Source of the DNA: Candidatus Iainarchaeum sp.
GTDB taxonomy: Archaea > Iainarchaeota > Iainarchaeia > JAGGVJ01
Length of the DNA stretch: 51,814 nucleotides
Assembly: GCA_021158055.1 (NCBI GenBank)
Contig: JAGGVJ010000015.1
Span: forward strand, 1-51,814
Direction of reading: 5' to 3'
Within the stretch, counting starts at the first letter, position 1. Each line of letters opens with the position of its first letter. A model generated the notes under the pieces. That model was not told where the DNA came from. It worked only from the letters and a program-made list of their open reading frames with translations, and did not search any database. Shown here one piece after another: positions 986 to 20,951 of the stretch. Made by a program: the position numbers and the translations under genes.

Positions 986-1741
986 ATGAATGAAGCAATA
1001 TTGAACATTGGCGGTTTGACTGATTTTTCCACTGTTGACTTTCCGGGAAAGCTTGCATCAGTGCTTTTTTTGTGCGGGTGTCCTTTTAGGTGCCCGTGGT
1101 GCTACAACGGTGACCTGGCGCTTTCAAAGAACTGTTTTGAGCTCAGCGTGGGTGTTGTGTTTGAAAAGATTATGTCGTGGAGGGATATGATTGACGCGGT
1201 TGCGGTGACTGGTGGGGAGCCGGTGATGCAGGCAGATGCCTTGATTGACCTTTTTAAAAAACTGCGGGCGGAAGGATTGTCTTTGAAGATTGATTCTGAT
1301 TGCTTTTACCCGGAAAGCCTTGAAAAAATCATTCCTTTTTTGGATTATGTTGCAGTTGACGTGAAGACTTCCCCTGGCAGGCCGCTGGAATACGCGAAAG
1401 TGACCGGGTTTAAGGGGGATGCGGTTGACCTTGTGAAAAAGGTAAGGCAGAGCCTTGAAGTTTTGAGGAAGTCAGGGAAACCCATTGAAGTCAGGACCAC
1501 GATTGTTTCCGATATGAATGATTCAGCCCAGATAATAAAGGAGATTGCGAAAGAAGTCGGGTTTGCTGATTCTTACGTGCTCCAGCAGTTCGAGCCAAGA
1601 GAAGGGCTTTTGGACAAGTCGTTTGAGTCAAAGGAAGTTGTTGAAAGGAAGAAAATGCTTGAGCTTGGTAAAGCCGCAAAAGAAGCCGGCTTGAAGAAAG
1701 TGATTGTGCGGACAAAGGAAAACGGAAGCGAAGTGGTTTGA
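986..1741 (+). CDS. nrdG: Anaerobic ribonucleotide reductase activating radical SAM protein
   Basis: STVDFPG..GCPFRCPWCYN (CxxxCxxC), TGGEP, EVRTT, YVLQQF; ATG at 986. Confidence 0.8.
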   Translation: MNEAILNIGGLTDFSTVDFPGKLASVLFLCGCPFRCPWCYNGDLALSKNCFELSVGVVFEKIMSWRDMIDAVAVTGGEPVMQADALIDLFKKLRAEGLSLKIDSDCFYPESLEKIIPFLDYVAVDVKTSPGRPLEYAKVTGFKGDAVDLVKKVRQSLEVLRKSGKPIEVRTTIVSDMNDSAQIIKEIAKEVGFADSYVLQQFEPREGLLDKSFESKEVVERKKMLELGKAAKEAGLKKVIVRTKENGSEVV

Positions 1742-1763
1742 TTTTTTATTTTTTAGTACTTGT

Positions 1764-1874
1764 TTAGCAAAAATAATTGACATGCTGAACTCTCACGGGT
1801 ATGAATAATGGCAAAAAGAAAGATAGAATTGCCAATCCCTTCGCTTGTTTTTTTCTGAATTTTATTTTACCCAT
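1764..1874 (-). pseudogene. 36-aa ORF MGKIKFRKKQAKGLAILSFFLPLFIP..., possible truncated cassette membrane-protein remnant
   Basis: Translated by hand; basic N-terminus plus hydrophobic stretch, same strand as the cassette. Confidence 0.3.
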
Positions 1875-2068
1875 ATACTGGCTGTCTGACAATTCAACCC
1901 GCAATATTATAAATTGATTGCATGGTTGTGATTTTTGAATTTACCGTAAAAAACATAAAAAATCAGAAAACGTTATGCTTCACCATGATTCCATAATTTC
2001 TGAAATAATTGTCGGACAGTCTATATAATTATATTTGATATAGCGTTGAGGAGAGGGGGCGGAATTGA

Positions 2069-2163
2069 ATATAACGGAATGAGGATAAAAGAAGTTTTCG
2101 TAGCGGAGAAAATTTGGGAAAATTGCGAGCCGAGCAATTTTCCTTTTATCCCTTGTTATACGA
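2069..2163 (-). mobile_element. attC-like recombination site (branched ssDNA hairpin)
   Basis: Minus strand: TCGTATAAC (R'') - GGATAAAAG (L'') - internal hairpin GGAAAATTGC/GCAATTTTCC - CTTTTATCC (L') - GTTATAT (R'). Confidence 0.75.
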
Positions 2164-2641
2164 GGGTAAAATTCTGAAAGAATTTTAAGCGCAGCGTCCC
2201 CAAGCGGAATGAAATGGAGCACAGAGTCGGGCGGAGCAGTGGCGTGATTATCTTTTCCACCTTTTTTCCTTTATGAATATTGATACACATGATAGAAAAT
2301 ACCACCAAATGGGTATTAGTACAATAACTATTTTAATAATAATTGGTGAAGTGAAATCACTATCAACAAAATTTAGTGGCAATAATATAAAATTGTAAAG
2401 ATATTCTTCAAATGCACAAATTGTATTGACAATTGTATTTCCACCTAACCCAAGAATTTCATCAAATACAAAGAAAGAAAAAAGGATTAAAATAACCATA
2501 ATAGGAAATATGATAGTTATAACTATCTTTTTCTTTGTTATTTTGAGAAAATTTTTGATTAGTATTTTCATATTCATATTGTATCTCTTGTAAATTTATA
2601 AAAGTTTGGTTTGAGCCACTGCGTAGCACGATTTCGTATAA
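2075..2641 (-). mobile_element. Putative gene cassette (~567 bp): one ORF plus attC-like site
   Basis: Bounded by two G|TTATA cores (G at 2642 and 2075); R'' complements the cassette 5' end over 9 bp. Confidence 0.7.
2248..2577 (-). CDS. Small AT-rich membrane protein (cassette cargo), 2-3 TM segments
   Basis: Hydrophobic segments IVITIIFPIMVILILFSFFVF and IIIKIVIVLIPIWWYFLSCVSIFI. Confidence 0.75.
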   Translation of the reverse strand: MNMKILIKNFLKITKKKIVITIIFPIMVILILFSFFVFDEILGLGGNTIVNTICAFEEYLYNFILLPLNFVDSDFTSPIIIKIVIVLIPIWWYFLSCVSIFIKEKRWKR

Positions 2642-2656
2642 CAACTTATATACGAA
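2633..2656. mobile_element. attI-like / loxP-like recombinase site TTCGTATA-ACAACTTA-TATACGAA
   Basis: Perfect 8-bp inverted arms around an 8-bp spacer, 32 bp upstream of the recombinase ATG; contains the GTTATAC core on the minus strand. Confidence 0.75.
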
Positions 2657-2657
2657 C

Positions 2658-2671
2658 TTTTATATATAAAA
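2658..2671. promoter_or_regulatory. Palindromic TATA box TTTTATATATAAAA (putative bidirectional Pint/Pc)
   Basis: Self-complementary 14-mer about 25 nt from the integrase ATG and about 25 nt from the att core on the other strand. Confidence 0.55.
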
Positions 2672-2688
2672 TTTGTTGTTAGTTACGT

Positions 2689-3507
2689 ATGGACGAACTT
2701 GAAAGATTAAACATTGAATTGAATTCAAGGGGATTCAGCCATAAAACAAAAAAATCTTATTTGTTTTTCATTGCTGATTTTCTGAAATTCACTAAAAAGA
2801 AGCCTCGTGAGATTCAAAAGGAAGACATTAAAAAATACATATCTTACCTTATTGTCAATAAAAAATATACAAATATCACTGCGAATGTGGCAATAAGCTC
2901 TCTAAAATTCTTTTTCGGCAGGGTTTTGGAAAAAGATGTATGCAAAGGCATAGAGCGCCCGAAAAGGGAAAACAGGCTGCCTACGGTGTTGTCAAAAGGG
3001 GAAGTAAGGAAAATCATAGGTTCTGCAAGCAATATAAAACACAAATTGGTTCTGAAATGCATTTATGGAATGGGTTTAAGGGTTTCAGAAGTTGTCAACT
3101 TGAAATTAGCTGATTTTGATTTTGACAGAGACATGGTAAAGATATGTTCTGCCAAAGGAAACAAAGACAGGTATGTTATGCTGCCAAAGGGCTTGAAATC
3201 GAATTTGATCAGCTATATTGAACTTGAAAAACCGGAAAAATATTTGTTTTCAGGCAGAAAAGCAAAATACACAATCAAATCAGTCCAGAAAATATTTGCA
3301 AATTCATTAAGGAAAACAGGCATTAAAAAAAAAGCAAGCTGCCATACTTTAAGGCATTCTTTTGCAACTCATCTGCTGGAACAGGGAATTGATATCCGGT
3401 ATATTCAGTCTCTCCTTGGACATTCAAGGTTGCAGACAACCCAAATATATACTCATGTAGCAAATAATAAATTAAAAAACATACAAAGTCCTTTAGATAA
3501 TCTGTAG
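2689..3507 (+). CDS. Tyrosine recombinase (N-terminal SAM-like domain), IntI-related but lacking the IntI insertion
   Basis: GLRVSEV (R), KGNKDR (K), HTLRHSFATH (HxxR), LGH, TTQIYTH (Y), C-terminal SPLD. Confidence 0.95.
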   Translation: MDELERLNIELNSRGFSHKTKKSYLFFIADFLKFTKKKPREIQKEDIKKYISYLIVNKKYTNITANVAISSLKFFFGRVLEKDVCKGIERPKRENRLPTVLSKGEVRKIIGSASNIKHKLVLKCIYGMGLRVSEVVNLKLADFDFDRDMVKICSAKGNKDRYVMLPKGLKSNLISYIELEKPEKYLFSGRKAKYTIKSVQKIFANSLRKTGIKKKASCHTLRHSFATHLLEQGIDIRYIQSLLGHSRLQTTQIYTHVANNKLKNIQSPLDNL

Positions 3508-4009
3508 TGTTAAAATTCAAGTTTGAGACTTAAGGCAGGAATGGAGGTGCTTGATACAGGTGATGTAGTAGCGTAACAAATTTTGTTGAAACTTTAATAA
3601 CGCATATGTTGCCTTTTTTATAAATATCTGTTTAATCTTTTTTTGAAGTATATTACGAATTGGTTTATGGCAGTGCTCCGATTATGTATAGGTAGAGTTC
3701 ATTTTTCGAACGTGTTCATGATGATCAGGTGCAGGATTTTTATCAGGGGGTTTTGCGTATGCTTCTGTTGAAATTTTCTATGGGTTCGTGGTGTAAAAAT
3801 AAGCCGCCGGATTTCAGGGAGATACTTGAAAAACGTGAATAAATTTTGCCTGTTATTCTTCCAGCGTAACTTTTTTAATTTCTATCCTTCTATTATATAA
3901 TCAATGTTGTGTTTTGTTATTGATTAATGTTGGTTGATTATGGATTATTGCTTTGGCAATAAAGTTTTATTTTTGGGTTACTTGCATTTCAGTCTTTAAG
4001 GTGGTTTTT

Positions 4010-20850: not shown

Positions 20851-20951
20851 GCGGGGGTCCCAGAGTCTGGTCAAATGGGATGGACTCAAGATCTTTTGAT
20901 AGGAAATCCATTGGCCTAGCGCCTACGCAGGTTCGAATCCTGCCCCCCGCA
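20851..20951 (+). tRNA. tRNA-Leu(CAA) with a 15-nt intron at 37/38 (20891-20905)
   Basis: GCGGGGG/CCCCCGC acceptor, ATGGA/TCCAT anticodon stem, long variable arm, relaxed BHB. Confidence 0.93.

Follow-up and report, generated by a model that had tools for sequence, protein, structure and literature searches.

The described systems closest to the locus analysed here are integrons on the one hand, and Xer recombinases with the mobile elements that exploit them on the other. Arrays of attC, the integron cassette site, have been published for archaea by Ghaly et al. (2022), mostly without an integron integrase (IntI): in the account given there, six IntIs are reported for 75 genomes, the archaeal IntIs carry an additional domain, attC identity extends across domains, and Aenigmatarchaeota are among the carriers (PMC9668308). 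Smyshlyaev et al. describe the insertion as "not fully conserved" in the integron-like subgroup of recombinases, and their "Cand" subgroup brings together enzymes from candidate phyla that are related to Xer (PMC8138268). Here we consider a stretch of 51,814 nucleotides of Candidatus Iainarchaeum sp. (assembly GCA_021158055.1, contig JAGGVJ010000015.1, forward strand), hereafter the window, which carries at positions 2,069 to 3,507 an attC-like hairpin, a single-gene cassette, a dif-like site and the gene of a short tyrosine recombinase. A preliminary description had seen in this arrangement a distinct platform for cassette capture, and our analysis supports that interpretation through cassette mobility, arrays and a recurrent recombinase geometry. 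We propose, with a probability of about 0.7, that the locus is a one-cassette member of a widespread integron-like system whose integrase is the neighbouring short XerA-type enzyme. That the unit is a cassette and the hairpin a recombination site is very likely; that the reaction is carried out by the neighbouring Xer-type enzyme is, judging from sequence, likely.

The window belongs to a genome (G000) of 1.15 Mb, 95% complete and in 45 contigs. Its host is an archaeon, as had been supposed, and of the DPANN type: relatives of its alanyl-tRNA synthetase at 45-49% identity come from Micrarchaeota, Anstonellales, Bilamarchaeum and Diapherotrites. The recombinase, the site upstream of it, the divergent open reading frame (ORF), the hairpin and its boxes all lie where the preliminary description had placed them. 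The recombinase gene (2689-3507, plus strand) encodes 272 amino acids. Divergent from it, on the minus strand at 2248-2577, lies the cargo ORF, which encodes a hydrophobic protein of 109 amino acids, and beyond this the hairpin (2069-2166), which folds best on the plus strand, that is, on the bottom strand relative to the ORF. ORF and hairpin together make up the cassette, read on the minus strand of 2075-2641, a span of 567 bp that agrees with the length first given for it. As in integrons, the recombinase is divergent from the cassettes and the insertion site lies directly upstream of its gene; the cassettes of the family are compact, with a single ORF followed by a folding imperfect inverted repeat, and their arrays keep one orientation; the inferred crossover falls beside AAC/GTT boxes, with the outer box completed by the next unit; the cargo is diverse and mostly unknown; and the hairpin family occurs in both domains. 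Unlike in integrons, the recombinase lacks the IntI insertion and scores as XerA, the insertion site is a near-palindromic dif-like 28-mer, and the hairpin has conserved internal sequence and a three-way junction.

The insertion site is the 28-mer ATTTCGTATAACAACTTATATACGAACT at 2631-2658, of the form 11-6-11, with arms at 2631-2641 and 2648-2658 around a centre at 2642-2647. Of the 11 positions of its arms 9 are complementary, 30 nt separate its end from the recombinase ATG, and it is the only match in G000 to CGTATAA-N6-TTATACG at one mismatch or fewer. The left arm belongs to the cassette, whose own end abuts the site 46 nt before the ATG, in the position of an attI adjacent to its integrase gene. 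The outer box of the hairpin, on the minus strand of 2155-2163, reads TCGTATAAC. The sequence exactly complementary to it, GTTATACGA, stands on the minus strand at 2634-2642, 46 nt ahead of the ATG, while the box that follows the hairpin, GTTATATTC on the minus strand of 2065-2073, matches over 6 positions only. Both counts, nine of nine pairs with the cassette's own start and six with the following box, had been claimed at the outset and are confirmed in the sequence. The inverted word common to hairpin and site is in fact 11 nt long (2153-2163 and 2634-2644). An inverted copy of an 11-mer within 600 nt occurs at 69 of 50603 positions of the window, which gives a chance level of about 2-3% for the 28-bp site, so that the shared word is modest evidence by itself. 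The other arm of the site has a counterpart in the hairpin as well: TAAC, a short spacer and then ATATACGAACT in the site compare with ATAAAAGAAGT in stem 1, alike at 8 of 11 positions, and in a clade of three related loci (L157, L126 and L150) the proximal arm of the site likewise resembles the stem-1 consensus of the hairpin family.

The cassette is mobile and has been horizontally transferred. Window positions 2083-2645 recur at 91.6% identity in one locus (L062) and positions 2064-2643 at 86.4% in a second (L064), and the rest of these two loci has no DNA-level match to G000, except for a weak 69% match in ribonucleotide reductase (RNR). Identity to the G000 orthologues is 50% for the PheT of L062, 44% for its RNR and 39% for a third protein, and a single-cell genome has a contig (L118) with 99.5% identity to this locus, so that binning error does not account for the finding. 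A contig from a seawater run (X3 among the metagenome runs) matches at about 98% over 2506-2643 and loses homology at 2643. The limits of homology are thus 2645, 2643 and 2643 in three independent contexts, and the crossover predicted at 2641/2642 is borne out in that all three breaks fall inside the 6-nt centre of the site, 1-3 nt away. Variant copies of the cassette are present in vent and seawater runs. The cargo ORF, with a GC content of 23.6%, belongs to a family of 21 homologues at 54-94% identity with 18 invariant positions, and it matches no family in Pfam or NCBIfam; in 12 metagenome loci that carry the ORF, neither xerA, nor the radical-SAM gene, nor alaS was found within 4 kb of it. 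In two further loci (L063 and L065) the ORF stands in other flanks without this hairpin. At 3950-4470 of L063 we find an ORF 94.5% identical, in GC-rich flanks, followed by a different inverted repeat in place of the family hairpin. The cargo gene is carried by site types of other kinds too, or moves in some other way.

The hairpin itself is structurally conserved across its family. Folded as DNA, positions 2060-2170 reach -14.4 kcal/mol, against -6.97 ± 2.51 for shuffled sequences (z = -2.96; 2 of 200 shuffles as good). The outer boxes lie at 2067-2075 and 2153-2163; stem 1 pairs approximately 2083-2091 with 2143-2151, stem 2 pairs 2092-2099 with 2108-2115, and stem 3 pairs 2116-2126 with 2134-2143, the consensus fold being a three-way junction. 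A covariance model (R1) built from six copies, in which 7 of 29 pairs were compensatory, scores 99.3 bits at the window hairpin. Across 148 family members aligned to this same model, paired cells amount to 94.5%, and 27 of 28 pairs vary in both partners. Covariation scores 0.555; shuffles give 0.148, with none of 500 reaching the observed value, and slid controls give at most 0.081. One G-T pair is kept in 131 of the 148 sequences, and elsewhere G-T outnumbers A-C by 89 to 49, an excess which implies that folding favours the strand antisense to the cassette ORFs. Conserved within the hairpins are GAAGTTT and AAATTTGGG, and at their ends the TAAC/GTTA outer boxes. The outer-box consensus of attC sites is RYYYAAC/GTTRRRY, from which the boxes of the hairpin differ by one position each. 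Two other natures of the element were considered and rejected: an RNA gene (tRNA half, signal recognition particle RNA or RNase P RNA), ARAGORN and Rfam both being empty at the hairpin, and a coding sequence, which is ruled out by a 4-nt indel between the two genomic copies.

How widespread is this family? A plain DNA search of 40 relatives for the hairpin gave chance-level matches only, and the covariance model finds matches in 8 of 151 same-class genomes, in six families besides that of G000. An exact-pattern scan of genome contigs (TAAC, GAAGTTT and AAATTTGGGAAA, with gaps) returned at least 119 stretches, in DPANN, other archaeal, candidate phyla radiation (CPR) and other bacterial assemblies. 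Among the matches listed, the archaeal labels include Woese-, Pace-, Nano-, Aenigm- and Nanohal-archaeota, Methanosarcinales and Thermoplasmatales, and the bacterial ones many Patescibacteria, Gammaproteobacteria, Bdellovibrionales and two complete Poribacteria chromosomes. The counts of loci that follow rest on 80 loci from these stretches, in which the model has 148 matches. After removal of opposite-strand echoes, a hairpin is present in 74 of the 80 and two or more in 37, and wherever there are several they share a single orientation (37/37). The longest ORF lies opposite the hairpin-model strand in 57 of 68 intervals between hairpins, with a median spacing of 868 bp and a median ORF coverage of 75%. 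L064, for example, holds five hairpins in the same orientation with a GNAT gene, a 92-amino-acid ORF, a HIT gene and the small cargo ORF between them, and ten sampled cargo ORFs include a methyltransferase, DUF6653, DUF4234, HIT and NUDIX proteins, five being without a family. The family as a whole has the integron habit of one ORF plus one site stacked in one orientation, the window itself holding a single cassette.

Within G000 the model finds two hairpins. The second, on another contig (C43:29814-29916; about 1490-1589, minus strand, of locus L002), is 86% identical to the first, with a score of 105 bits; situated some 100 nt downstream of a 232-amino-acid membrane-protein ORF, it has no GTTA-side outer box and may be a stranded or decayed cassette end. 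In three hydrothermal-vent runs (X1, X2 and X18) the summed contig depth over window positions 2076-2169 is 93-161, against 10-18 in the flanks (5-10x), and the same runs hold many contigs with members of the hairpin family and many loose ends into unrelated sequence. The hairpin family is abundant in hydrothermal-vent communities.

The geometry of recombinase, site, cassette and hairpin recurs. When recombinase homologues were sought in the 80 loci by tblastn with the window enzyme (E <= 1e-4), 17 loci from other assemblies proved to carry a short homologue, 37-47% identical; 15 of these are complete, at 262-280 amino acids, and two run off the contig. In 17 of 17 loci the hairpins are without exception upstream of the recombinase gene and on the same strand as it, with none downstream, and in 14 of the 17 the last hairpin stands 607-1775 bp from the start codon, compared with 522 bp in the window. 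One outcome that would have told against the platform, homologous integrases without hairpins or variable cargo nearby, is not what we see, given this shared geometry and the arrays of unrelated single ORFs. The only exception to the geometry is L164, labelled Saccharibacteria, where a 321-amino-acid XerD/XerC-like gene (981-2047) is preceded, 10 nt from its start, by a family hairpin of opposite orientation.

The junctions of these loci carry the signature expected of circular cassettes. We took GTTA and the next 5 nt of the last hairpin as a 9-mer and sought its exact complement between hairpin and recombinase; this own-end 9-mer is present in 13 of 18 recombinase loci with the window included (12 of 17 without it), 46-178 nt before the start codon in 12 of the 13 and 609 nt before it in L162. 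For 24 array cassettes we compared the pairing of the outer box with the cassette's own far end and with the flank next to it: the own end gives the better pairing in 17, the flank in 4, and 3 are tied, the means being 3.79 and 2.25 of the 6 nt beyond GTTA (sign test, p = 0.007). Such a bias is expected if cassettes move as circles that cross over beside the TAAC/GTTA boxes, as the preliminary description had held.

The recombinase is a short enzyme of the XerA type. It matches PF00589 and PF13495 and scores 245.9 bits against NF040815, the NCBIfam model recomb_XerA_Arch (cut-off 220), but 237.5 bits against the integron-integrase model TIGR02249, which is below the cut-off of 265; this latter model aligns in two pieces and skips its positions 181-239. 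Aligned to VchIntIA, the Vibrio IntI4 (2a3v, 164.6 bits), residues 11-181 match chain residues 13-185 and residues 198-271 match 246-319, so that 16 residues stand where VchIntIA has 60, and the IntI-specific insertion (I2) is therefore absent, as had been noticed at the outset; integron integrases carry I2 around patch III. To the XerA proteins of Thermoplasma (5hxy, 167.6 bits) and Pyrococcus (4a8e, 151.2 bits), on the other hand, the enzyme aligns in a single stretch. The SPLD ending remarked on as IntI-like is indeed present but is not specific to IntI, being common to most of 21 same-class XerA-type proteins. When nine of the short hairpin-adjacent enzymes were scanned, eight scored best on NF040815 (203-250 bits) and all nine fell below the TIGR02249 cut-off. 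Five of the nine reach the NF040815 cut-off, three of them from bacterial-labelled assemblies; passing the XerA model is therefore not specific for a housekeeping role.

This bears directly on the strongest of the other explanations, that the enzyme is an ordinary housekeeping XerA with its chromosomal dif at 2631-2658, and that cassettes parasitise the host Xer machinery in the manner of the integrative mobile elements exploiting Xer (IMEX) without any dedicated capture system. Several observations speak for it. The enzyme passes NF040815 and is the sole PF00589 match, hence the sole tyrosine recombinase, of a 95%-complete genome, where it could be the housekeeping resolvase. In protein family, length, domain order and 28-bp 11-6-11 target the locus resembles the archaeal XerA/dif described by Cortez et al. 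(2010, PMC2958812), the site having this classical form and being unique in G000, albeit with a cassette-borne left arm. Same-class genomes, moreover, carry a XerA-type gene in 26 of 41 cases (23 of 25 among those of high quality), one each, and in the five relatives with both xerA and a CGTATAA-N6-TTATACG site (G008, G010, G034, G024 and G003) the two lie on the same contig, 0.6-13.7 kb apart, the site standing in G008 and G010 beside a 123-amino-acid ORF of equal length in both. This xerA-linked palindrome (L205-L209) is a candidate for the dif of the class, unlike the dif of Thermococcales, which is not a neighbour of xerA (PMC2958812). That a folded strand can serve an Xer enzyme is shown by the CTX phage, which integrates as a single-stranded hairpin mimicking dif (PMC7790495).

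We nevertheless consider this explanation improbable, if the most serious of its kind. In all of the 17 loci with a recombinase homologue, the gene keeps a fixed, short distance to the array and a single geometry, which is the pattern we would expect of a platform. A separate XerA-like paralogue without a hairpin within 1.5 kb exists in three of five other platform-bearing genomes, two having a single copy. The gene and its surroundings are foreign in composition: the GC content is 33.9% in the recombinase gene (4.8th percentile of 819-nt windows) and 32.4% in the region 1742-3952 (lowest 1.0% of 2211-nt windows), the genome standing at 42.1%. In the same-class xerA/dif regions no family hairpin was found (best E 0.21, filters off, 60.5 kb), and the intervals between xerA and dif hold genes in mixed orientations and look like ordinary chromosome. 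Nor is the dif-like pattern more frequent than chance would have it: with up to one mismatch it occurs once per genome in 9 of 41 genomes, whereas a reversed-pattern control gave 17 matches in 13 genomes. A plain XerA/dif reading of the locus was demoted because the cassette turned up in unrelated contexts. The site here also abuts the recombinase gene, unlike in Thermococcales, and one of its arms comes from a mobile cassette. It lies only 2.6 kb from the contig end, where its placement by GC skew is uninformative. The low-GC stretch 1742-3952, 2.2 kb long, includes non-coding flanks of 327 and 445 nt to the two sides of the platform. One archaeal genome (G153; L210, L218) has two XerA-like genes each with an upstream family hairpin and a third without, which suggests more than one platform per genome there.

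The phylogeny leans the same way, without being decisive. In a tree of 38 proteins, without IntI, XerC/D or characterised XerA outgroups, 20 of 21 same-class XerA proteins form one clade (approximate likelihood ratio test of the Shimodaira-Hasegawa type, SH-aLRT, 93), and the window enzyme falls outside it, with weak support, together with five hairpin-adjacent enzymes from bacterial-labelled assemblies. Clustering with housekeeping XerA had been named beforehand as an outcome that would speak against a platform; the enzyme does pass NF040815, but the tree puts it outside the clade of its class. Tree, GC content, paralogues and the hairpin-free intervals of the class, taken together, favour an acquired platform enzyme. 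The enzyme may also serve as chromosome-dimer resolvase at the composite palindromic site.

A second explanation would have a canonical IntI acting in trans, as for integrase-less attC clusters, with the neighbouring Xer-type gene playing no part. It draws on the published scarcity of IntI genes beside archaeal attC arrays (again the six IntIs in 75 genomes of PMC9668308), on the report in the same paper that archaeal attCs are usable by IntI1 in E. coli, and on most hairpin loci having yielded no recombinase. Yet none of the 80 loci has an IntI-length homologue at E <= 1e-4 with the query used here, the sole longer match, that of L164 with 321 amino acids, fits best as XerD/XerC, and no protein of G000 scores above the cut-off of the IntI model TIGR02249. 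Moreover, the geometry of 17 loci out of 17 and the junction result of 13 out of 18 would be left unexplained, and we regard this explanation as very unlikely. Hardly credible, finally, is the idea of an RNA element that belongs to the upstream gene (for instance a terminator or a structure of the 3' untranslated region), or of a miniature repeat, in place of a recombination site: the hairpin does always lie downstream of ORFs, in one orientation and with strong structural conservation, but its conserved G-T pair and G-T excess are on the strand antisense to the ORFs, homology breaks at the outer boxes, the outer box matches the far end of the cassette and not the neighbour, the hairpin associates with a recombinase, and Rfam has no family for it at gathering threshold or at E <= 10. 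In the remainder of the window, Rfam scores a tRNA of 101 nt at 20851-20951 (plus strand) with 44.7 bits that ARAGORN does not list; its extra length suggests an intron-containing tRNA.

Returning to the reading we prefer, a cassette platform served by its own short XerA-type enzyme, a number of points weigh against it. The I2 insertion is reported to be necessary for integron recombination (PMC9668308; PMC7790495), so the action of an I2-less enzyme on a folded strand is mechanistically unproven. The grouping of the window enzyme with the hairpin-adjacent enzymes has an SH-aLRT of only 85 and a long branch, and an approximately unbiased (AU) test does not reject its grouping with its own class (p = 0.31), which allows vertical descent. 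No recombinase was found, within the sequence examined, in 56 of the 74 hairpin loci, nor in L062, L064 and L078-L084, and G000 has only two hairpins, the second (on C43) without a recombinase nearby. The 80 loci were picked by a pattern derived from the family, many come from binned metagenomes with possibly wrong taxon labels, and the covariation score, as said, belongs to an alignment fitted to the model. As to the junctions that had been put forward for checking, breakpoints at the predicted crossover were found across contexts, but no circle junction or empty site was seen in the assembled Logan contigs of four runs, where rare forms are invisible.

How might such a platform work? For concreteness, suppose that the 567-bp unit at 2075-2641, the 109-residue ORF with its hairpin, is a mobile cassette that came in as a circle. 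Its hairpin site would then have been joined to the attI-like site some 46 nt upstream of the recombinase gene, by crossover beside the TAAC/GTTA boxes at 2641/2642 and 2074/2075, and catalysis would be due to the neighbouring short XerA-type tyrosine recombinase, or another member of its family, without I2. The outer binding box would form when the two cassette ends pair, and the inner one would be stem 1, given its 8 of 11 positions in common with the recombinase-proximal arm of the attI-like site, so that the two boxes of the folded strand would mimic a duplex attI/dif-like site. We infer that the hairpin takes part in the reaction as a folded single strand of DNA; the alternative would be a pathway through a cruciform or a duplex. 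Lethal second strand exchange on a folded substrate is a recognised problem (PMC7790495), and here it would have to be avoided without I2.

Seen in this light the locus has features of Xer-exploiting elements too. As in IMEX and the CTX phage (PMC7790495), a folded strand seems to imitate an Xer duplex site, and the mobile unit has no recombinase of its own. Unlike IMEX, the units here are single-gene cassettes arrayed beside a recombinase gene, and their ends behave like those of integron cassettes. Two duplex Xer-type flanking sites, as found in IMEX and dif modules, are not present: at the distal boundary stands a hairpin of about 100 nt, whose half-boxes are 80 nt apart. The pdif modules of Acinetobacter are small gene modules on plasmids, moved by XerCD and flanked by two complete duplex sites; their Xer-type boundaries are alike to those here, where, however, one boundary is the hairpin of about 100 nt and the half-boxes are split. 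In a literature search we found no paper that links Xer-type or short recombinases to attC arrays, with the proviso that the supplementary attC lists of PMC9668308 may already include the family. What appears to be new, and was not found in print, is the recurrent platform with its adjacent short Xer-type enzyme and dif-like insertion site.

More generally, we see an even chance that short XerA-type recombinases without I2 are the native integrases of a large cassette pool in DPANN, CPR and other organisms, and in genomes with a single copy they may also resolve chromosome dimers. To our knowledge, directed evolution is the only approach by which the descent of integron activity from Xer-like enzymes has been studied until now. 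If our proposal is correct, these platforms would show, in living organisms, the Xer-like condition that integron integrases are held to have come from, and the evolutionary transition from Xer to IntI would become directly testable. The proposal would account for the lack of a recognisable IntI in most archaeal attC arrays and provide a candidate integrase for many such "orphan" arrays, and it would mean that integrase-based integron finders probably score such platforms as integrase-less. A single-copy enzyme, as in G000, may then serve for cassette capture and dimer resolution alike, at a site of which a cassette supplies one half. The platforms would moreover offer ultra-small archaea and bacteria a way to exchange genes, and gene-capturing integrons may work without the special integrase domain that has been thought essential.

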